From a virus (Duplodnaviria > Heunggongvirae > Uroviricota > Caudoviricetes > Crassvirales): a stretch of 10,181 nt of DNA. Positions 1-10,181 of this stretch are shown here, piece by piece. Where the stretch lies: IMG/VR virus record IMGVR_UViG_2974789010_000001, positions 1 to 10,181 of that record; one strand, 5' to 3'. Both the position numbers and the translations under genes were made by a program. The notes beneath the pieces are model-generated. The model saw only the letters and a list, made by a program, of their open reading frames with translations, had not been told where the DNA came from and searched no databases. Every line of letters starts with the position of its first letter. The first letter of the stretch is position 1.

Positions 1-40
1 AAAAAAAAAGAGCTAGAGGTTAATCCCCCTAGCTCTTTTT
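1..40 (-). terminator. Rho-independent terminator, probably bidirectional
   Basis: The minus strand reads AAAAAGAGCTAG-GGG-GATTAA-CCT-CTAGCTCTTTTTTTTT. This is a perfect 12-bp inverted repeat (5-16 / 29-40) extended by one G-U and two G-C pairs, followed by a 9-U tract, a few nt after the tandem stops. The plus strand also has a TTTTTGTGTTTT tail after the stem. Confidence 0.9.
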
Positions 41-48
41 GTGTTTTA

Positions 49-3000
49 TTACTTGGTAAGATTAGCTCTACCATACTGATAACTCTGTGCTGCTTGATAT
101 GGATTTTGCATCATTAAGTAGCTTCTCCAATAGGGAAGCATTCTCTCAACTTTGTGTGCCCATTTCAAATCACCTTTCTCATAAGTACCTCCACTTGACT
201 TATACTCCTCTTGAGTAGCAAATAGTGTAACTATATTAACTAAGTCAGTAGCCAAACTAAAGCCAACTGGTGATATATTAGTAACTACTGGAGCCTCTTT
301 AACAAACCCCCAAGGAGTATTGAAAGCAGCTTGTTCACTATATAATCTACTAGCTGCATAATACAGGAAACCCATAGCTTGGTCAGGTTCTTCATCATCG
401 TCATCATCAGGCTTAGCACTTAGCATCTTAAGTAAAGTTAGTGCTACAATAACTGCCATATCTGCCCAGTTTCTTCTCATATTATAATACTGATTAGCTG
501 AGAAGCCAGCATCAAGCATCCTTTGCTGAGTAGTCTTAGATACTGGAGTTAGGATAGCTCTAGCTGTTAGACCAAATCCACCTTTATCAGTGAATGTAGA
601 TGCAATTACCTTAGCAAGAGTTCTCATAGAGCCTTCTGTTTCCCCACCTAAAGCTACACTATAAGTACTAACACCAAATCTTCTTTGTATCATACCTAAA
701 GCATACCCTCTCATGGCTAACAAAGCATTACCATAGACATTCTGTTGAATAGCTACTTTATCTGCATTGTTATAGATACCGTGCATTCTATTATTGATTT
801 CTCTAGCTCTATCCATGAATCTAGACTCATCATCTATACTCCATTCTCTTAGCTCACCAGTCTCAGTATCAATATACTTAACACCTTGCTTCATAGCTAA
901 AGTCTTACCTAATTCAGGTTTAGTTTCATCTATAGGAACTACTTGATAAGCATTGTATAATGAAATAGGATTACCATTTTCATCTACTAGCTTAGTCTTA
1001 TTAGCTAATGCTAAGAAGGCCATAGTCTGCATGTAGTGCTCACCACATTTATAAGGTAAGAATAGATTCTCACCAACAGGATTTAACTTAACCCATTTAG
1101 ATTTATTGGTGAAGTATTCTCTTTCTTTCTTCTTATTTTCATTAAGAGTATTGAACTGTCTAATGAATAAGCTTACCTTATCTTCCTTAACATCATCACC
1201 AGCATGTAACCAGTTAGATGGCAGTGACTTCCAATAGATTAGATTAGCTCTTTCCCAATCTTTTACACTAAAGAATTCACCTGCTAAAGCCTCTTTGAAT
1301 ATTTCAAGACTACCAGTACCAACATTAACTGCACCACCAAGAACATTACCACCTAAGAAGAACTTTGATGCAAGACCAGTAAAGAAGCCTACTATCTTAT
1401 TTAGCACAACTTTCTTACCAATCTTTATCTTGGTAGTATTAATGCCATACACTTGCTTGTCTAAGAACTTCTGGTATCTCTTATAGGCTCTGGATGTTTC
1501 ATCTCTCTCTGACTCAGGCTTAACCCCTCCTACAGCTCTCCTCTTCAAGACATCTTTACCAATCTCAAGAGTACCTGCTATACTAGAAATACCTGCATAA
1601 GTGTGAGCCATACCTGCATAAGCTAATGTAGATTGGAACAAGTCTGTACTAAGTTCTCCAGTATCTCTTAACTTATTGATACCATAGATAGGAACTCTGT
1701 TTAACTTCTCTTTTTCAAACTCAAGCTGATTAGAGAACATATCTTCCTCTATTGTATTATAGGTTTGGTCACTACCAAAGTCTCTATCTTCACTATCTTC
1801 AACAAAGGTATCAGCCATATTTCTTCTCAAAGTATAACTAATAGCTTTGCCAGTTCCCTCCGTCATTCTTCTATTCCTAATCTTATTCATAGTAGTGCCT
1901 TTGAATTGAGGCATTCTATAAACATTAGTACTACCATTAGGCAAGAAGCCATCAAGTTCTCTCTTAAGGTTCATGTATTTATTTAACCAACCCTCTCTCC
2001 TTGTTCCTGCTATAGTTCTAGCATATTGCTCACTTCTATAGTTATCATTAGGATACCATCTTTGCTCAATCATATGCCACTGGGAGTGTTGTTTATGCCA
2101 TGACTTAGCTTGAGGTTTGAAGAACTGGTCCCAAAGCAGACTCTTTTCAAAATCAGACTTACCATCAAGGTTATTGTTAGCATAGAAGTTATCTCTTGCT
2201 TCTTTCTTGAATGCAAGCCAATCATCTTCATAGTCTCCCCATACAAACTCTGATACAATGTTACCTGTTAATTTGCCTGTTCTTGGGCTAACTTCACAGA
2301 ATATATCAGTGTTCTTCTCACCAATATCATGCAAGTCTTTCTCCAATCCTCTAAGTCTATCTTGTGATTGAATAGTCATATCATCAGCATATTTATTAGC
2401 TAACTTAACTGCTCTATCTGCAAGCTGACCTATTACATCAGAGTTGTTAGACATTGATGCAAGGATTGATTCATGAATACTAATATCCTTTTCCATGTAT
2501 CTAAGTAAATCCTCAATAGGAACTCTTTCAGCATTAACCCACTTAAGTCCTCTTTGTCCTTTCTTCCAGTCAAAGATTACTCTTGAAGCTCTTTCTACAT
2601 AAGTAGAACCCATAGCATCTTCAAGGAATTTTAAATAAAACTCTCTCTGTTTGATTTCAAGATTACTTAGTAACCTATCATCACCATTAATAGCTTCATT
2701 CAAGTTTCTCCTAAGAGTCTTGAGTCTATTCATTGTATCTTCACTTACATTCTGTAACTTCAATCTAGAGTCTTCTGTAGTGGTTGCATCCTTTACAATC
2801 TTAATTAAAGCCTGTGCATTTGTGACAAATGTGCCTACTTCTCTTAATAAAGCTGCATTCTCTGGAGTAATATTGGCTACATTGAAATCAACTTTATTGA
2901 GCTTGTTAATCATCTCTGGTACAGTATCAACCATTAAGTCCATAGCTTCTGTTATACCATCTACTGCTATCAAGTCAGCAAATAGTGAAGGGCTATTACT

Positions 3001-4164
3001 TATTCTTCCTGCCTCAACTTGACCTGCTAATTGATTGTACTTGTTATAAAGAGACTTATCTATAGCCCTCATTTCTTCTGTTTGACTTCTTAAGATGTTC
3101 AATATAGACTTGAAGGTAGTTACATTAACAGAGTCTTTAGCACTGAATAGAGTTTCTTGAGTTTCAAGAGCATTTTCTACAGTTCCCTGGAAACCAGGTG
3201 ACATAAATCCTTGTGCAATTGCATCAGCAGTTCTTATAGCATCAAGTTTAGCATTAGCTATCTCATTACCAGTAATAGTATTGAATACTCTCTTAATTGT
3301 ATCTACAATTCTACCTATCAATGATTGCCATGAAGCTCTCTTATCAATTTCACCATTGATTGCTTTACCAACTAAATAGCCAGCAACCTCTCTTGCAGGA
3401 TTACTTCTATAGGCAATAGTGTCATACTCCTCACCCATAATAGCCTTCTGTACATCAGGTGTAAGCACTCTCTCAAGTCTCTGAACTAAAGGATTATTAC
3501 CTAATGCACCTACAGCAAAGTGACCTGCTTCCTCAGATAAGCTACTATCAACTTGTTCATTATTAGCTACTTTAATTAGCTGATATAAACTATCAGCAGT
3601 CCTAGTTGCATTAATAGTACTATATCTACCATTAACTCTATCACTTGCATCCATGAAGCTGTAGTCAACACCAGCTCTATTAAGATAGAATTTAATCCTT
3701 TCTTGCAGACTTCTATTAGCTATATTATCATTAAGTTGAGCAGTATTAGTGCTATTCTTATCAACTATACTTAACTCTACCTTACCATCTGGTCTACTAA
3801 TAATAGTAGCCATATACTTGTCATTGTATTGGCTAGCTCTATTAAAAGATTGAAGTTTAGGTACAGCCTCATTATAATCATATACCCCTGCACCAATATC
3901 TTTGTTAAGAGTTTGCTTTATCTTTTCATCACTTAACTTTAATTTAGTTAGTTGTCTCAAAGACTGAAAGGTTATCTCACCATTACTATCAAACTTAGCT
4001 TCATTAGCTACTCTACTTAAGAACTCAGGGCTTGTACCTACAGCATAATACTGCTTAGCTATTTCCCTATCATTGGTGTAATGTAGTAGTGAGCTAAAAA
4101 GCTCACTATCTACAAATTCACCTTGTTTGTTCTTTACTCTTGGAATTATACTACACTTATCCAT
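49..4164 (-). CDS. Large (1371 aa) putative virion cargo/ejection protein with N-terminal zincin-like (EExxH) domain and C-terminal membrane-interacting helices
   Basis: Uninterrupted 4.1-kb ORF with the same codon bias as the RNAP gene. ATG lies 1 nt after the RNAP stop and the gene ends TAA TAA (49-51, 46-48). Contains LSEEAGHFAV (aa 209-218), a downstream REVAG (E259), an amphipathic helix WQSLIGRIVDTIKRVFN, and hydrophobic segments at about aa 924-956, 1233-1250 and 1299-1316. The product call is inferred from these features and from adjacency to the vRNAP. Confidence 0.75.
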   Translation of the reverse strand: MDKCSIIPRVKNKQGEFVDSELFSSLLHYTNDREIAKQYYAVGTSPEFLSRVANEAKFDSNGEITFQSLRQLTKLKLSDEKIKQTLNKDIGAGVYDYNEAVPKLQSFNRASQYNDKYMATIISRPDGKVELSIVDKNSTNTAQLNDNIANRSLQERIKFYLNRAGVDYSFMDASDRVNGRYSTINATRTADSLYQLIKVANNEQVDSSLSEEAGHFAVGALGNNPLVQRLERVLTPDVQKAIMGEEYDTIAYRSNPAREVAGYLVGKAINGEIDKRASWQSLIGRIVDTIKRVFNTITGNEIANAKLDAIRTADAIAQGFMSPGFQGTVENALETQETLFSAKDSVNVTTFKSILNILRSQTEEMRAIDKSLYNKYNQLAGQVEAGRISNSPSLFADLIAVDGITEAMDLMVDTVPEMINKLNKVDFNVANITPENAALLREVGTFVTNAQALIKIVKDATTTEDSRLKLQNVSEDTMNRLKTLRRNLNEAINGDDRLLSNLEIKQREFYLKFLEDAMGSTYVERASRVIFDWKKGQRGLKWVNAERVPIEDLLRYMEKDISIHESILASMSNNSDVIGQLADRAVKLANKYADDMTIQSQDRLRGLEKDLHDIGEKNTDIFCEVSPRTGKLTGNIVSEFVWGDYEDDWLAFKKEARDNFYANNNLDGKSDFEKSLLWDQFFKPQAKSWHKQHSQWHMIEQRWYPNDNYRSEQYARTIAGTRREGWLNKYMNLKRELDGFLPNGSTNVYRMPQFKGTTMNKIRNRRMTEGTGKAISYTLRRNMADTFVEDSEDRDFGSDQTYNTIEEDMFSNQLEFEKEKLNRVPIYGINKLRDTGELSTDLFQSTLAYAGMAHTYAGISSIAGTLEIGKDVLKRRAVGGVKPESERDETSRAYKRYQKFLDKQVYGINTTKIKIGKKVVLNKIVGFFTGLASKFFLGGNVLGGAVNVGTGSLEIFKEALAGEFFSVKDWERANLIYWKSLPSNWLHAGDDVKEDKVSLFIRQFNTLNENKKKEREYFTNKSKWVKLNPVGENLFLPYKCGEHYMQTMAFLALANKTKLVDENGNPISLYNAYQVVPIDETKPELGKTLAMKQGVKYIDTETGELREWSIDDESRFMDRAREINNRMHGIYNNADKVAIQQNVYGNALLAMRGYALGMIQRRFGVSTYSVALGGETEGSMRTLAKVIASTFTDKGGFGLTARAILTPVSKTTQQRMLDAGFSANQYYNMRRNWADMAVIVALTLLKMLSAKPDDDDDEEPDQAMGFLYYAASRLYSEQAAFNTPWGFVKEAPVVTNISPVGFSLATDLVNIVTLFATQEEYKSSGGTYEKGDLKWAHKVERMLPYWRSYLMMQNPYQAAQSYQYGRANLTK
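3388..3534 (-). other. Zincin-like metallopeptidase-fold region with EExxH in place of HExxH
   Basis: S-E-E-A-G-H-F (E211-H215, nt 3520-3534) in a predicted helix, and a Glu 44 aa later (REVAG, E259, nt 3388-3390) where a gluzincin third ligand would be expected. The fold assignment is from motif pattern only. Confidence 0.55.
4082..4114. repeat. Inverted repeat, 14-bp stem with a 1-nt bulge and 4-nt loop
   Basis: TGTAG-TAGTGAGCT-AAAA-AGCTCACTA-(T)-CTACA. Perfect 9-bp arms at 4087-4095 / 4100-4108 plus 5 more pairs at 4082-4086 / 4110-4114. Confidence 0.6.
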
Positions 4165-4168
4165 ATTA
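4162..4168 (-). promoter_or_regulatory. Tight stop/start junction TAA-T-ATG (probable translational coupling), no canonical Shine-Dalgarno
   Basis: The minus strand reads ...AAGATTTGT TAA T ATG GAT..., with a 1-nt gap, A at -3 and an AT-rich upstream context. This fits SD-independent initiation in Bacteroidota. Confidence 0.55.
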
Positions 4169-7100
4169 ACAAATCTTATTACCTTCTTGGTCAGTTACAT
4201 TATTAGCTTGTGCTTTCAGAGAGTTAATCGTATCAATCAAGTCTTCTCTACTAGCTTTACTTAGCATCTCTACTACCATATCTCTTTGAAGAGTATTATC
4301 AGCTTTAAGAGCTAAGTCAGTAGCCTCTTTTATTAGTTCTTCTGTAGTTAAACTTGTATCTGGTGTACTAACTACCTCAGGTTCAACAGATGTATTACCA
4401 TTGTCTTGAACCTCAGTATCAGCTACCATACTTGTTGTAATTCCATTAGAACTGTATTGAAGAGATTTACCTGCATCACCTAAGGCATCTACTCTAAAGT
4501 AATCCATACTACCAGTAGTACTTTGATTAAATATATCTCCACCATTATTACACAAATATACTACATCATCTATAACAATCACTGGTCTGAATACATCTAT
4601 ACCTTTATCTTCACTAGGAAGTAAGAAAGGGTTTGCATCTTTACCTAGCTTCTTTGCATTTAGTGTGAAACTGTTAACAGCTACACCCTTTTCAAATGCT
4701 AAGTTACTGATAATTTTACCACTTCTTCCTTTAGGATGAAGTACCAGTCTAGTGTTATCTAAGTGATTAAGCAAATACTGTTTAGCAAACTCTTGACTAT
4801 TAACACCTATCCTACTCTTTTGCACTTCATTTAAGAAATCAACATAAGATTGAGGATTACCATTATAGTCATATCCTACTTGCACAGCTAACTTAACTTC
4901 TGTAGGAGCCAAGTTCATGAATGCCATAGGACTATAAGTAAAGCCTAACTTGTAATAGTTATATAAGAATAGAGATTGTGCTATCTCAGCAGTATTCTCA
5001 TTTCTCATTAAGTCACCCCAACTCTCTTTAAGCTCATCCTTCTGATAAGGTGCTAAACCACCTATATCTTGAATGTTCATACTTACTTTACCAGTCTTTT
5101 CATCAGTTTGAAACTGCATATACTGGAACATAGGCATGGACTTCATTGTAGGATTAGCCTCAAGAATATTGAATAACCCTTCTGGAAATACCTCTGTAAA
5201 GTATTCTCTAGCTGTTACAACTTCACCAGCAGCATTAATAGGCATGTTTCCATTAAACAAACTATTCTCTTGCTGACTTAACATAAATACCATTAAGTCA
5301 CTGTGTATGCTATTAATAGTCTCTGCATCAAGTAAGCCACTTCTAGTGAATCCTGCTAGCTCTTCTCTAGCTTCTTTATAAGCTTTAGTGTTATAAGGAT
5401 AGAACTTGTTGATTGCCTTCTCTGCTTTTCTATTCATATCATACATAGCTTGTTCATAGGCAAATGGATTTTCAAGTAAGCTTTCCATATACTCTTGGTC
5501 ATTCATAGCTAGTGTATTATCCTCATTATTAATAGGTGAGTAGATACCTTGTGCTACTTTCATCCCAACCTTAAGAGCATCAGCTTTCTTGAAAGACTTG
5601 ACATATGCAGCTACTTTCATCTGTTGTGCATAGGCATCACCAAAGGTAGAACCTACAGCATTAGATGCAGTAAACTTAGTGTTTCTAACAAACTGAGAAA
5701 CATCATTACTTGCCTCAAGTATCTTTCTGAATAAGTCAGCTACATGAATCTGTCTTTCAACAAACTCATCATCTCTCATTAGGTCTTTCTTATCTTCATT
5801 AGCACTTCTAACAATGTTGTATGCTAGCTGCTCTTTATCAAACTCCTCAGGTATAGCTTTATTTAATTCACCTTCAACCTCATAAGTATCTAATACATTA
5901 TCTATCACAGAGTTAATATCAGACATACCATTATTAAAGCTGTATTCACATATATCCTTAATAATAGGTTGATTAAATAACAAACCAATGTCCTCAGTTG
6001 TGAAACCAAGTCTTGCTAACATTGCACCAGCATCAGCAGTAATAGTATTTAGATTCAAGAAGTTAAGTACAGGGTCTTTAACAGCATCTACTGATGCAGC
6101 TAAGAACTCAGCAACATTCAAACTTGTATCTATCTCACTATTGTGTAATAAGTCTGCATAAGTCTTGCCTGCAAATGAGATAGCTTCTTTCAAATAGAAT
6201 TCTTCCATCAAAGATGCAAAAGCATGATTAGTATTCTGATTAGCAAATATACCAATCAGCTTACCTGCAACATTATTCTGCTGATTGTAAGTAACAATAG
6301 TCATAGGGTCACTAGGGTCATAGTTAGGTTCTGGGTCTTCCAGTTTACCTTCATCTATAGCTCTATTAATACTAGAAAGGTCAACAGTGCTAGAGCTATG
6401 GTCAGCAATTACATTACCAAACATTAATTCTCTCATCACTCTAGCTGCCTTTGAAGCATTACTAAATCCACCAGGGGTATATCTATCACCAAAGGTTTCA
6501 ACATCACTTAATCTCTGCTGAATTAGATGAATAAGCATGTTGTTTCTACTAGCCTTACTATTCTCTAATGGACTCTTACTAAAATCATACTCTTCAAATT
6601 TAATATAACCTCTATCAGCTACAAACTGATTAAAAGCTGCTTGATATGTATAAGGTAATCCAGCTTTCTCCCAATACTTATACAGCCTATCTAATGATTC
6701 AGTGTCCTCTTCTCTAGCTTCTTTAAGAACTGCCTTCAAATTAGGATATGTATCATAGAACTCTGACCATATATTCTTTACCTCCTCTGATATAAGTTGT
6801 CTTTGTTGATACTCATTTCTCATAAAGTACAACTTATCAATATCAAAGTCAAAACCTGCAATAGTAGTTCCCTGAGGTGGTACTTTAATAGTACCTCCAG
6901 CAGTCTTATGACTGAATCTTTTCACTCTCAGATTAATCATTGAGTAATCTCTTTCAGTTGGAATTCTATATGCAAGTAAACTAAGTATATTAGGATAGGT
7001 CTTTTCAAGTAATGTATTACCATCTGCATCAACCTTTAATGTACCATCTTCATTACAGTAGGTTCCAAAGTCAAGAGCATGTTCTTTACCAGCATTATCA

Positions 7101-10100
7101 GTATAGGTCAAATCCCAAGGAATCTCACACTCAGCATACAGTATGTTATTAGGATTATTAGGGTCTGTTACATATCTCAAACCTCCATCTTCTTCATAAC
7201 CAGTAATACCCATAGCAGATACTTGAACTGCACTACCACCTTTAATAGACTGTTTGTTTACCATCTTCTTGAAGAGACTAAAGAATAAAGCTGAGCTATC
7301 ATGCTCTAATCCTCCTTCAAATAAAGGTATAGTAAATTCACCTTTAGCATTAAGACTATAAGCCATAATGTTATCTTTAGACTCCCTGCTGTTGTTAGCT
7401 GTAGTCTGAATTAGTCTATTACTTATCTTACCAGCATCTGATACTGCATTCTCAAATAGATGATAAGAATCAATGATATTAGCAGTAATAAGAGAATTAT
7501 AGAACCTTACAAGATTACCTCCATTCAACTTAACATTACCATACTTACCACCAAGATTAACTCTCTTTCCACCTATATAGCTACTGTAGTCTTTGAACCT
7601 TTCTACCTTAGCCATAATCAGCTTTCTTACCTGAGTACCAAACAACTGAGAACTGTTAATATGCTCTGGAACATTAGTCTGAATTCTATAATCTTCATAA
7701 CTAAGTTGATGCACATAACCCTTAGATAATTGAGAAACAAGAGTATCTTTATCTGATACAGGAACAGCTAATTTAGTAAAATTAGGGTTCTTCTTCTGAT
7801 TTTCTAAAGTCATCTCTAATTCTTTACCATCTTTATCTATAGCAGGTATTACATTTCCTGTAGAATCTATATATAAATTATTTTCATTTATTTTATAATC
7901 TATAGGAGAAGAACCAAATCCACCTACCTTAACAATCTTAGTAGAACCAATCATATCTATAGGCTCACTCTTACCAGTTTCAGGATTAACGTGCTCTTCC
8001 ATCCAATATGCAATATCTCTTAATTTACTGCCAGCAGGCAGAAGTTCAGGTATAAGAACTGCCTCAGCATACTTATGCTGAACAGGTATCTTTAACATAT
8101 CTGCTCCATTGATACTATAGTTTTCAAAAGAGAATAAATAAGGCTTAATAGGTTGAAATATAACAGCTAAATCTGAGATAGACTTAATATCTTCCATTGA
8201 TGGATTCTCATCTTTACCTATCTTTGACCTAATAGATTGTATCTGATTATAAGCTGCTTCCATTCTTTCATCCCACTTACCAGCCATACCCATTACTTTC
8301 TTATAACTTTCAAGTGTTCTATAGCCTTGACCATCTGTTAGAGTATTCTTCTTATATGACTTATATACATTAGAGTTCTTACCAAAGTGATTAGCAATTG
8401 CTGCCATAAACTCTGGGTCAAACTTCTCAGCATTTACATCAATATCATCAAAATAAACTACTCTTTCAATACCATCAGTACTATATCTTTCACCTGTGAA
8501 TGGGTCAATAGCTTCTACACTTAATGCAGAACCTGGGGCATGAATCTCCTTATATCTCTTCTGTAAGTCCTTGGTTCCCTTATAGAAAGAAGGGTCAATA
8601 GTCATCATTTGCAACTGTTGAATAGTAGCAAACTTAGTATTCCAGTAATAGTCTGCTAGCACTTGGTCTATAGTTCTATCACCTTTAACTTCTTGACTTA
8701 GATATACATACTGATTACCTGCTTGTTCAAGTACTCCTAAGTTATTCAGTTGTTGCTTAAACTTAGTAACAGCATCATCCATATATGCTCTAATAGCTTG
8801 CTTAACTGATTGTTCAAGGTTTCCCTCTTTAATCATTCCAGCATACTTAGGTTCATTTAGGAAGGGGAGTAGGCTAAACTTATCTTCATTCTTTGAGAAG
8901 TTGTCAACGGCCTTTATACCTTCCTCCTGCATCTTTTTATTAGCAGCTTTAGTTAACTCCATCCTTCTCTTCTCTTGAACATAGACATTGTACAAACCAT
9001 CTAAGATTTCCTGACCACCATATCTCTTGGCTTTAATGAACTTAGCAACTCCACTATCACCAAGGATAAATACAGGATACCAAGCATATTGACTATTAGG
9101 ACTAATCTGCCTTTCAGAGAAATACTCATTGAGCATCTGTACTGCGTGTTGCTTACTAGTGAAATCATCAAATGTAAGCTTATCAGTACCTAAGAATCTC
9201 TTGAATGTGAAGTTAGCAGCAAAGTTATCTTCTTTACTTAAATCACTATTATAGAGTTCTTCTATCCATTTGTTAAGTATCTTACCATTATACTGGAAGT
9301 ATGAGGAATCAAGATAAGTAGTTTCAAGCATAGCTTGAAGTCCTCTCTTATCAGTAGCCTTTACAAAGCTAGCTATTCTATCAAATCTATCTCCCATGAA
9401 TGATGGAATGACATTACTAAAGAAAGTATTATCACCATATCTTACTCTACTTTCAAGCTTTAAGCCTTCCCTGCTCTTAGCTACAATAGCAAGTACTTTA
9501 GTAATCTTCTCTCTCAGTACACCTTTCTTTTCATTACTGGAAGCTCTCTTGATTAACTCCTCATAACTAACATCCTTCCTTCCCTCTTGCTCTTCCTTAG
9601 TAAGTGTTAAACCAAACTTAGCAGCATCAAGTAATTCCTTATTTAATGCTCTAACATCTTTGTTCTTACTCATTATTCTATCTAAAGTCTCACCATCTAT
9701 ATCAATACCCAGTGATTCTGTAGCATCAATTAAGAACTGCTTTCTTTCAACCTTGGACATTTGCCAGAACTTAGATTTCTCAGTTATTCTCTCTGGTTGT
9801 GTAAGAGTGTCAATTATCTTATTTCTAATTCTCTCTACTCTTACTGGCATAACCCTAGTACTAAGACCACTCTTTTCAAAGATACTTCTAGTAGGATTAA
9901 CTACCTTACCAAGTTTAACTGAGGTCAAGAATGAACTAAAAGGTTTATCACCTTTAATTCTATTAAGTAGAGCAGTCTTGTAAGTCTTAATTCTGCCATC
10001 TTGTTTCTCAGTCTGCATAGCATAAGGTTGGAAGTTCTTCTTGAAATCAGTATAGAACTGGGTTCTTACTAATGGATTCTCAAGCTCTTCCATGAATGGA

Positions 10101-10180
10101 GAAACCCACCCAGCAGTACTACTATACTCTCTAAGAGCATTCATCATTTCAGTTTCACTGCCAACACCTCTAAGTACATC
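4166..10180 (-). CDS. Virion-associated DNA-dependent RNA polymerase, single-chain two-barrel (beta/beta'-like) type of crAss-like phages; 5'-partial
   Basis: The ORF track gives 1993 aa from the ATG at 10147, but the frame stays open to the window edge (..DVLRGVGSETE-MMNAL..), so the true start is probably outside the window. Motifs, numbered from the 10147 ATG: TDGQG (aa 604, nt 8324-8338); RIP (aa 1061, nt 6959-6967); catalytic DFDID (aa 1100, nt 6836-6850); GKLIGIFAN (6239-6265); SVDAVKDP (aa 1352, nt 6071-6094). Their order and spacing match the crAss vRNAP / QDE-1-like two-barrel polymerase family. Stop is TAA at 4166-4168. Confidence 0.93.
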   Translation of the reverse strand, partial: DVLRGVGSETEMMNALREYSSTAGWVSPFMEELENPLVRTQFYTDFKKNFQPYAMQTEKQDGRIKTYKTALLNRIKGDKPFSSFLTSVKLGKVVNPTRSIFEKSGLSTRVMPVRVERIRNKIIDTLTQPERITEKSKFWQMSKVERKQFLIDATESLGIDIDGETLDRIMSKNKDVRALNKELLDAAKFGLTLTKEEQEGRKDVSYEELIKRASSNEKKGVLREKITKVLAIVAKSREGLKLESRVRYGDNTFFSNVIPSFMGDRFDRIASFVKATDKRGLQAMLETTYLDSSYFQYNGKILNKWIEELYNSDLSKEDNFAANFTFKRFLGTDKLTFDDFTSKQHAVQMLNEYFSERQISPNSQYAWYPVFILGDSGVAKFIKAKRYGGQEILDGLYNVYVQEKRRMELTKAANKKMQEEGIKAVDNFSKNEDKFSLLPFLNEPKYAGMIKEGNLEQSVKQAIRAYMDDAVTKFKQQLNNLGVLEQAGNQYVYLSQEVKGDRTIDQVLADYYWNTKFATIQQLQMMTIDPSFYKGTKDLQKRYKEIHAPGSALSVEAIDPFTGERYSTDGIERVVYFDDIDVNAEKFDPEFMAAIANHFGKNSNVYKSYKKNTLTDGQGYRTLESYKKVMGMAGKWDERMEAAYNQIQSIRSKIGKDENPSMEDIKSISDLAVIFQPIKPYLFSFENYSINGADMLKIPVQHKYAEAVLIPELLPAGSKLRDIAYWMEEHVNPETGKSEPIDMIGSTKIVKVGGFGSSPIDYKINENNLYIDSTGNVIPAIDKDGKELEMTLENQKKNPNFTKLAVPVSDKDTLVSQLSKGYVHQLSYEDYRIQTNVPEHINSSQLFGTQVRKLIMAKVERFKDYSSYIGGKRVNLGGKYGNVKLNGGNLVRFYNSLITANIIDSYHLFENAVSDAGKISNRLIQTTANNSRESKDNIMAYSLNAKGEFTIPLFEGGLEHDSSALFFSLFKKMVNKQSIKGGSAVQVSAMGITGYEEDGGLRYVTDPNNPNNILYAECEIPWDLTYTDNAGKEHALDFGTYCNEDGTLKVDADGNTLLEKTYPNILSLLAYRIPTERDYSMINLRVKRFSHKTAGGTIKVPPQGTTIAGFDFDIDKLYFMRNEYQQRQLISEEVKNIWSEFYDTYPNLKAVLKEAREEDTESLDRLYKYWEKAGLPYTYQAAFNQFVADRGYIKFEEYDFSKSPLENSKASRNNMLIHLIQQRLSDVETFGDRYTPGGFSNASKAARVMRELMFGNVIADHSSSTVDLSSINRAIDEGKLEDPEPNYDPSDPMTIVTYNQQNNVAGKLIGIFANQNTNHAFASLMEEFYLKEAISFAGKTYADLLHNSEIDTSLNVAEFLAASVDAVKDPVLNFLNLNTITADAGAMLARLGFTTEDIGLLFNQPIIKDICEYSFNNGMSDINSVIDNVLDTYEVEGELNKAIPEEFDKEQLAYNIVRSANEDKKDLMRDDEFVERQIHVADLFRKILEASNDVSQFVRNTKFTASNAVGSTFGDAYAQQMKVAAYVKSFKKADALKVGMKVAQGIYSPINNEDNTLAMNDQEYMESLLENPFAYEQAMYDMNRKAEKAINKFYPYNTKAYKEAREELAGFTRSGLLDAETINSIHSDLMVFMLSQQENSLFNGNMPINAAGEVVTAREYFTEVFPEGLFNILEANPTMKSMPMFQYMQFQTDEKTGKVSMNIQDIGGLAPYQKDELKESWGDLMRNENTAEIAQSLFLYNYYKLGFTYSPMAFMNLAPTEVKLAVQVGYDYNGNPQSYVDFLNEVQKSRIGVNSQEFAKQYLLNHLDNTRLVLHPKGRSGKIISNLAFEKGVAVNSFTLNAKKLGKDANPFLLPSEDKGIDVFRPVIVIDDVVYLCNNGGDIFNQSTTGSMDYFRVDALGDAGKSLQYSSNGITTSMVADTEVQDNGNTSVEPEVVSTPDTSLTTEELIKEATDLALKADNTLQRDMVVEMLSKASREDLIDTINSLKAQANNVTDQEGNKIC
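6836..6850 (-). other. RNAP catalytic Mg2+-binding aspartate triad DFDID (context AGFDFDIDKLYF)
   Basis: Direct translation. A DxDxD motif about 40 aa after an R-x-P motif, equivalent to NADFDGD of cellular beta' and DxDGD of RNAi RdRPs. The G-to-I form is the one known from crAss-like phage RNAPs such as phi14:2 gp66. Confidence 0.92.
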
Positions 10181-10181
10181 A

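Follow-up and report, generated by a model that had tools for sequence, protein, structure and literature searches.

Vertebrate genomes are depleted of the dinucleotide CG (CpG) through a CpG-specific methyltransferase, and in phage T4 the proteins EndoII, EndoIV and Alc act on cytosine-containing host DNA, with T4 itself being protected by base modification. Among bacteria, CpG depletion by a CpG-specific methyltransferase is attributed to M.MpeI of Mycoplasma penetrans in work cited in PMC11282364, while virulent phages are known to avoid restriction sites (Rusinov et al., 2018, PMC6286503), in a survey that makes no mention of CpG or dinucleotides. Nothing on a loss of CG from crAss-like or Bacteroides phages was found in the open-access literature searched, and a recent survey of phage CpG content has only four Bacteroidota phages and leaves crAss phages unmentioned (10.1101/2025.05.15.652987). 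The subject here is a 10,181-nt stretch of a crAss-like phage genome (IMG/VR record IMGVR_UViG_2974789010_000001, positions 1 to 10,181; termed the window), which is almost free of CG, as is the genome around it, and in which new CGs are very probably removed by weak purifying selection.

The window contains exactly seven CG against approximately 299 expected from its composition (C 21.5%, G 13.6%), an observed to expected ratio (rho) of 0.02, with a Poisson P for the deficit of about 1e-116. The initial annotation had arrived by manual scan at seven CG, two of these in ACG codons and five at codon junctions, at some 300 expected and at a ratio near 0.02, and its count and positions proved exact.

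1..10181, no strand: CG-purged DNA with 7 CG, rho 0.02 and no GATC, part of a genome-wide trait
399..400, no strand: surviving CG, codon junction GAC/GAT
780..781, no strand: surviving CG, codon junction CAC/GGT
1861..1862, no strand: surviving CG, ACG (Thr)
4229..4230, no strand: surviving CG, ACG (Thr)
7990..7991, no strand: surviving CG, codon junction CAC/GTT
8908..8909, no strand: surviving CG, codon junction GCC/GTT
9145..9146, no strand: surviving CG, codon junction CAC/GCA

The abundance of GC and the complete lack of CGN codons that had been reported were likewise borne out, the rho of GC being 1.17-1.23 and all 158 arginines among the 3,375 codons being AGA or AGG. The depletion is also, as had been claimed, far stronger than codon preference would give, with five CGs at codon junctions against 101 +/- 7 after shuffling of synonymous codons. 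What the initial annotation overlooked is that GATC is absent from the window (0 against 35 expected), with ATGCAT, CTGCAG, CAGCTG, GATATC and CTGAAG likewise missing.

As a whole the record represents a complete phage genome of 100,314 bp, which has terminal repeats, uses genetic code 11 and contains 20 tRNA genes. The purge extends throughout, with 135 CG (rho 0.045) and a rho of 0.01-0.12 in each 5-kb bin, some 95% of CG having been lost in this phage and its relatives. CGN accounts for 14 of 1,408 arginine codons (1%), and the only tRNA-Arg detected in the genome reads AGA. Codon or amino-acid bias as the cause was rejected via the C-to-G codon junctions (60 against 839 +/- 20 expected), the spacers (21 CG against 183 expected) and the tRNA genes (19 CG against 69 expected). 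Eleven of the 19 CGs in tRNA genes are the T-loop CG and outside the T-loops there are only 8 CG to 64 GC; within the tRNA cluster (L003:2378-7095) eight of the 20 T-loops have CA instead of CG, one tRNA-Gly has TTGGA and the stems are nearly CG-free. Non-adjacent pairs are spared (C(N)1-5G 0.87-1.07), as is GC (1.03). CG is low whatever its neighbours, in each of the 16 NCGN contexts, with palindromes no more depleted than non-palindromes (54 against 61 expected), and the residual CGs have no flanking preference except that CCGG is 0. A purge confined to first-entering or early DNA was rejected, with residual CG being Poisson-spread over 98 genes (chi2 106, 97 degrees of freedom), rho being 0.04 in both genome arms and the survivors lying at random across early and late genes.

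The genome also holds only 3 GATC against approximately 280 expected and avoids CCWGG, ATGCAT, CTGCAG, GATATC, CTGAAG and CAGCTG, which is ordinary restriction-site avoidance. ATGCAT and more GATC are retained in the related phages frurule and DAC17, the sets of avoided sites varying by lineage and the CG purge being common to them. Otherwise purged relatives carry CG-rich islands of about 50 CG in tail genes (L025:3248-6407, L050:3476-6732 and L064:4333-5485; rho 0.5-1.4), and those of L025 and L050 have many CG yet no GATC; rho of CG could serve to date recent gene acquisitions of this kind in purged phages. Could the purge then be the summed avoidance of many ordinary CG-containing restriction sites across many host strains? 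Site avoidance is a known phage strategy (PMC6286503), it is strong here for GATC and the other sites named, and weak selection per site would suit so diffuse a threat. This explanation is nevertheless quite improbable, given that every NCGN context is low with palindromes no lower, that GC, also frequent in restriction sites, is untouched along with the gapped C..G pairs, and that in the islands of L025 and L050 the two purges behave differently.

The major capsid protein is 100% identical to that of Kolpuevirus hominis cr126_1 and most core genes are 94-100% identical, and by these near-identical proteins the genome is assigned to Kolpuevirus (Crassvirales, Steigviridae), its nearest cultured relative being frurule of Bacteroides cellulosilyticus. 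Most of 80 related loci have a rho of 0.01-0.09, and values for named phages are 0.03 for crAss001, 0.02 for DAC17, 0.055 for frurule and 0.09 for IAS virus. Only mildly low are phi14:2 (0.46), cr108_1 (0.51) and cr10_1 (0.44), and 80 relatives of the marine phage phi14:2 have a median of 0.48 with none below 0.2. The CG purge is thus a subclade trait within the crAss-like phages. Separate purges are present in Flavobacterium psychrophilum phage Fpv1 (Fipvunavirus; rho 0.08) and Bacteroides phage DAC23 (rho 0.11), the latter being an unrelated 179-kb phage of B. thetaiotaomicron with 23% GC which also avoids GATC.

In five Bacteroides genomes, sampled at 80 kb each as stand-ins for the exact host of the present phage, rho is 0.99-1.14 and 79-86% of arginine codons are CGN, so that host and phage differ in CG density at approximately 48 against 1.3 per kb. 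Phages recorded on one host species also differ, ARB25 (1.39) from DAC17 (0.02) on B. thetaiotaomicron and jaberico (0.55) from frurule (0.055) on B. cellulosilyticus, such contrasts spanning 10- to 70-fold in rho. Other Bacteroides phages include B40-8 at 1.17 and crAss002 at 0.70, and junction CG ratios are 1.1-1.2 in ARB25, B40-8, crAss002 and jaberico. The generic lineage bias that the initial annotation had proposed to look for in the host and its unrelated phages is therefore rejected. With the Bacteroides genomes normal and phages of the same host species differing, neither host bias nor a gut-wide effect explains the purge, and mammalian TLR9 sensing of CpG, the most speculative of the causes first offered, is not needed. 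As a selective force TLR9 is scarcely credible: the most extreme sampled cases are indeed gut phages and none of the 80 phi14:2 relatives falls below 0.2, but Fpv1 of F. psychrophilum is purged and the gut phages crAss002, jaberico, cr10_1, cr108_1, ARB25 and B40-8 are not.

Mutation and selection were compared by counting, in pairs of close relatives, the synonymous differences at sites that can form CG, with the other synonymous sites serving as clock, block by block. Three models with no fitted parameter were used, namely fast CG decay with normal gain (hypermutation, as by methylation and deamination), a lowered rate of gain with loss left normal, and weak selection, the strength of which was set by the equilibrium odds (S of approximately 3.8 per site here). 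Between the present genome and its relative G002 there are 31 differences, for which these models predict 68.5, 9.5 and 27.3 respectively. Seven pairs pooled, one per clade and picked after the table was seen, with equilibrium and neutral controls assumed, give 59 differences against predictions of 150.9, 23.2 and 59.5 (pooled log likelihoods -49.7, -39.5 and -15.5). Calibration on a non-purged clade gave 63 against 63 and 71 against 72. These counts argue that each CG step is slightly costly and that new CGs are, very probably, mostly removed by ongoing weak purifying selection in all contexts and genome regions. The cost per CG is soft, as purged relatives carry the tail-gene islands.

Methylation of CpG followed by deamination, another of the causes first offered, is by comparison highly improbable. 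In its favour are a small TG/CA excess (1.09), a frequency of differences between relatives some four times higher for CG alleles than for control C alleles, and the presence of C5-methyltransferases in Bacteroides genomes. Mutational decay over-predicts the differences 2.5-fold, however (151 against 59), the per-allele gain of CG is lower than that of the control by a factor of 8-15, survivors persist between relatives, and the C missing before G at four-fold sites turns up as A and not only as T. Synonymous change from CGN to AGR is moreover impossible by deamination, and the TG/CA excess suggested as its signature does not account for the lost CG, AG/CT standing at 1.40. The search for methyltransferases that had also been suggested yielded no C5 or N4/N6 enzyme in the genome or its relatives (PF00145 and PF01555), the C5 search covering 50 related records, and the host is CG-normal. 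A base-modification system of the phage, proposed likewise, is not supported, as no gene for one is recognisable either in the annotation of cr126_1 or in the 25 top Pfam/PHROG families that were listed for 59 proteins, many small genes being unannotated.

It is also improbable that CG is disfavoured by a constraint of the phage's own apparatus, whether in the virion RNA polymerase or in replication, packaging or ejection, or by a repair bias that depends on context. All sampled crAss-like phages are mildly low in CG, as with the phi14:2 relatives, and the trait tracks the replication block in recombinants; against this, the low-gain model under-predicts the differences (23 against 59), PolA is present in purged and non-purged genomes alike, for which reason polymerase type was rejected as a cause, and close relatives of the same architecture span a rho of 0.02 to 0.5. 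In trees built with FastTree, the structural genes of G039 and G042 nest among purged phages (support 0.98) and the replication block lies outside (1.0), these two genomes being CG-richer throughout (rho 0.37-0.47), a pattern suggestive of CG being regained upon replacement of part of the genome or a switch of host. G040 is likewise an apparent recombinant, its structural genes grouping with purged phages and those for replication lying elsewhere. It is also worth mentioning that late genes need TAG read as Gln in these three genomes as well as in G055, G007, G012 and G036.

From the foregoing we infer that the CG step itself is read by some agent that acts on nucleic acid in the course of infection. 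The depletion being selected and not a bias of the host lineage, a cause of the conflict type is likely, in line with the uncharacterised host-phage conflict to which the initial annotation had pointed. Its list of causes was sound in including a host defence but did not contain a CG reader encoded by the phage, which the same-host contrasts raise as a fifth option. Such a phage-encoded reader, serving self/non-self discrimination, is proposed here tentatively, as a reading with somewhat less than an even chance. If a nuclease or a binding protein preferred CG, host DNA would be attacked or silenced, the CG-poor DNA of the phage would mostly escape, and no base modification would be required.

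The reader could instead belong to a host defence, widespread in Bacteroidota, that recognizes CG, or a modified form of it, in phage DNA as it enters or replicates, and to which only some phages are exposed, others escaping via modification, lifestyle or inhibitors; this is a serious if less probable candidate. Purges have arisen convergently in Steigviridae, Fpv1 and DAC23 without a shared purge-specific gene, the same genomes clearly avoid restriction-type sites such as GATC, and rho is continuous among relatives (0.02-0.87), as host shifts would give. Such a defence must, however, spare the 48 CG per kb of a host that is not itself CG-depleted, and ARB25, B40-8, crAss002 and jaberico keep their CG on Bacteroides hosts; it is on account of this host CG and of the several phages of the same hosts that a phage-side reader is slightly favoured. 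The CG-richer genomes of G039 and G042, with their replication blocks outside the purged phages, also count towards the phage side. No CG-reading host defence was found in the literature searched, and we know of none of that kind.

The best candidate for a phage-encoded reader would be a domain of the large cargo protein encoded next to the window across the circular junction. The genes concerned are as follows.

49..4164, minus strand: giant 1,371-aa protein of the transcription/cargo block; no CGN
4166..10181, minus strand: 3' part of the gene for the virion RNA polymerase (2,279 aa), start at genome 11005; no CGN
6836..6850, minus strand: DFDID metal-binding motif of crAss-type virion RNA polymerase
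1..48, no strand: probable two-way intrinsic terminator, a hairpin between A and T runs spotted by eye
Genome 93502-100245, convergent on the window genes: 2,247-aa cargo gene, candidate nuclease domain at residues ~1977-2080

The RNA polymerase is 94% identical to that of cr126_1 and 84% to the 'putative RNA polymerase' of frurule, and its DFDID motif presumably functions as established for two-barrel RNA polymerases. The cr126_1 gene (L092:5509-12717) is 123 codons longer and is annotated with DUF1768 (NADAR), pointing to a swappable module that the present genome lacks. Equivalents of the 1,371-aa gene carry the annotation 'RNA-polymerase subunit' in frurule and cr126_1. The terminator sits between the window genes and the convergent cargo gene. 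An alternative genetic code for the genome was considered and is not needed, code 11 covering 87%.

The cargo protein, presumably injected with the RNA polymerase, would contribute a RecB/Cas4-type PD-(D/E)XK domain. Its motifs GTLD (2031), DMK (2048) and QVSMY (2067) correspond to the GxxD, DxK and QxxxY of RecB/AddA/Cas4-type enzymes, and it matches PF12705 at an E-value of 7e-4, just under the cut-off. A structural model (predicted local distance difference test score 83) has a predicted fold resembling the nuclease domains of AddA, AdnA, MGME1 and Cas4, the AddA match having a Z of 9.3 and a root-mean-square deviation of 4.1 over 152 aligned residues. A PDDEXK domain of putative function in large transcription-block proteins of crAss-like phages is already known, from a paper that makes no mention of CpG or dinucleotide bias (PMC7886860).

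Within a first set, the nuclease motifs are intact in 16 of 16 purged Steigviridae (rho up to 0.17). A second set, chosen before searching for its spread of rho, has the domain in 15 of 16 purged genomes (rho up to about 0.2), the motifs of one of these, G087, not being resolved. Full-length cargo genes without the domain occur in G039, G040, G055 (with TAG read as Gln) and G103 (0.31), at rho 0.31-0.47. A hand tally of genomes with and without the domain comes to 31:1 among purged and 7:16 among other genomes, although kin share states and Fisher P values thereby overstate the association. The 2,401-aa cargo gene of G043 (L423; rho 0.39) keeps the domain with degenerate catalytic motifs (ENVD, KIA, QLSAL). 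A loose first-pass search did not detect the domain in ten phi14:2-like genomes, while a stand-alone relative of it is present in Fpv1 and none in DAC23. That the predicted nuclease is itself the CG reader is a lead and not a finding, and on these sequence comparisons is rather unlikely to be correct. The fuller scenario, in which a CG-preferring nuclease is injected and the phage has erased its own CG, making self the absence of a dinucleotide in a form of 'restriction in reverse', would be similarly doubtful.

A number of observations weigh against this account at one or other of its levels. The closest pair, with cr126_1, has 26 differing and 41 shared CG, between the predictions of selection (13) and hypermutation (47), an intermediate value that transient polymorphism would give. 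G090 is purged (0.06) and has full-size cargo genes with no such domain; the domain is present in G042, G041, G083 and G085 at rho 0.25-0.49; and cr108_1, G050 and G052 (rho 0.29-0.51) carry another subfamily of it. Of the relatives with solved structures, the closest (AddA, RecB, MGME1, Exo5) are nucleases that act on single-stranded DNA largely without regard to sequence. The 135 CG left and the islands tolerated mean that the reader cannot be an all-or-none cutter. DAC23 shares no purge-specific gene, and convergence in unrelated phages argues for the host side. The genomes are also phylogenetically non-independent, and the pattern could be accounted for by a host switch as well.

Gene content was compared across 26 genomes for other candidates. 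A 202-aa gene (11343-11951), upstream of the RNA polymerase gene, is found in 13 of 16 purged genomes and in none of 7 others, and in the sample only in purged Steigviridae. Its predicted fold combines an SH3/Tudor part and a WYL/Sm-like barrel that has a helical hairpin, the best structural match having a Z of 7.3. The matches listed include no nuclease fold and the gene was rejected as a candidate, although it may encode a nucleic-acid binder. A five-gene ubiquitin-like cassette lies beside the primase gene (genome 28770-33934), encoding a ubiquitin-like protein with an L7/L12-like domain, an E2-like protein, a JAB protein, a ThiF/E1 protein and a fifth product without assignment. It was found at first in 15 of 16 purged genomes, including Fpv1, against 1 of 7 others, and was rejected as the cause when 80 further carriers gave a rho of 0.02-0.87 and IAS virus was found to lack it. 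In relatives the slot between the primase and uracil-DNA glycosylase genes has a peptide-ligase-like set (G039, cr108_1, phi14:2) or an rIIA/rIIB-like pair (IAS virus), the motifs being identified by eye. Also rejected were genes of 125, 178 and 124 aa, which are present in CG-richer genomes too, and the genes in common with DAC23, being only generic nucleotide-metabolism and helicase genes.

When phages lose CG under selection and regardless of context while their host is CG-normal, some activity that reads CG would be implied. It might be a bacterial defence of a new class or a phage system of self/non-self discrimination not seen before, and either, if true, would be new biology and possibly the source of a dinucleotide-specific tool enzyme. 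The trait is directly testable, as crAss001, DAC15/17 and frurule, the cultured models among crAss-like phages, belong to the Steigviridae. The CG density of these abundant gut phages is approximately 35-fold below that of their hosts, a difference relevant to how strongly they stimulate TLR9.

The controls from shared host species, the comparison of three models and the lead on a nuclease are new here. The purge resembles restriction-site avoidance in virulent phages (PMC6286503) in that a short palindromic word is removed synonymously under selection; it differs in that a bare dinucleotide, of normal frequency in the host, is lost in every context, under weak selection per site and with no cognate enzyme known, and whereas the GATC and 6-mer avoidance is confined to defined 4-8-bp sites, the defining mark of such avoidance, that of CG is not. 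With the CpG depletion of M. penetrans and vertebrates it shares a genome-wide deficit, but here no methyltransferase was found, the TG/CA excess is weak, survivors persist, gain is suppressed, CGN is at 1% and the host is normal. The CpG suppression of vertebrate viruses (ZAP, TLR9) is likewise a selection-driven, codon-independent loss, although its sensors are vertebrate-only (PMC11282364) and the host here is bacterial and CG-normal. The candidate cargo domain is the known PDDEXK feature (PMC7886860), its association with the CG purge being a correlation from the present analysis. The proposed logic would be closest to that of EndoII, EndoIV and Alc in T4, by analogy, an enzyme targeting a feature common in the host and missing from the phage, with the difference that T4 protects itself by base modification and the present phage, putatively, by loss of the sequence itself.

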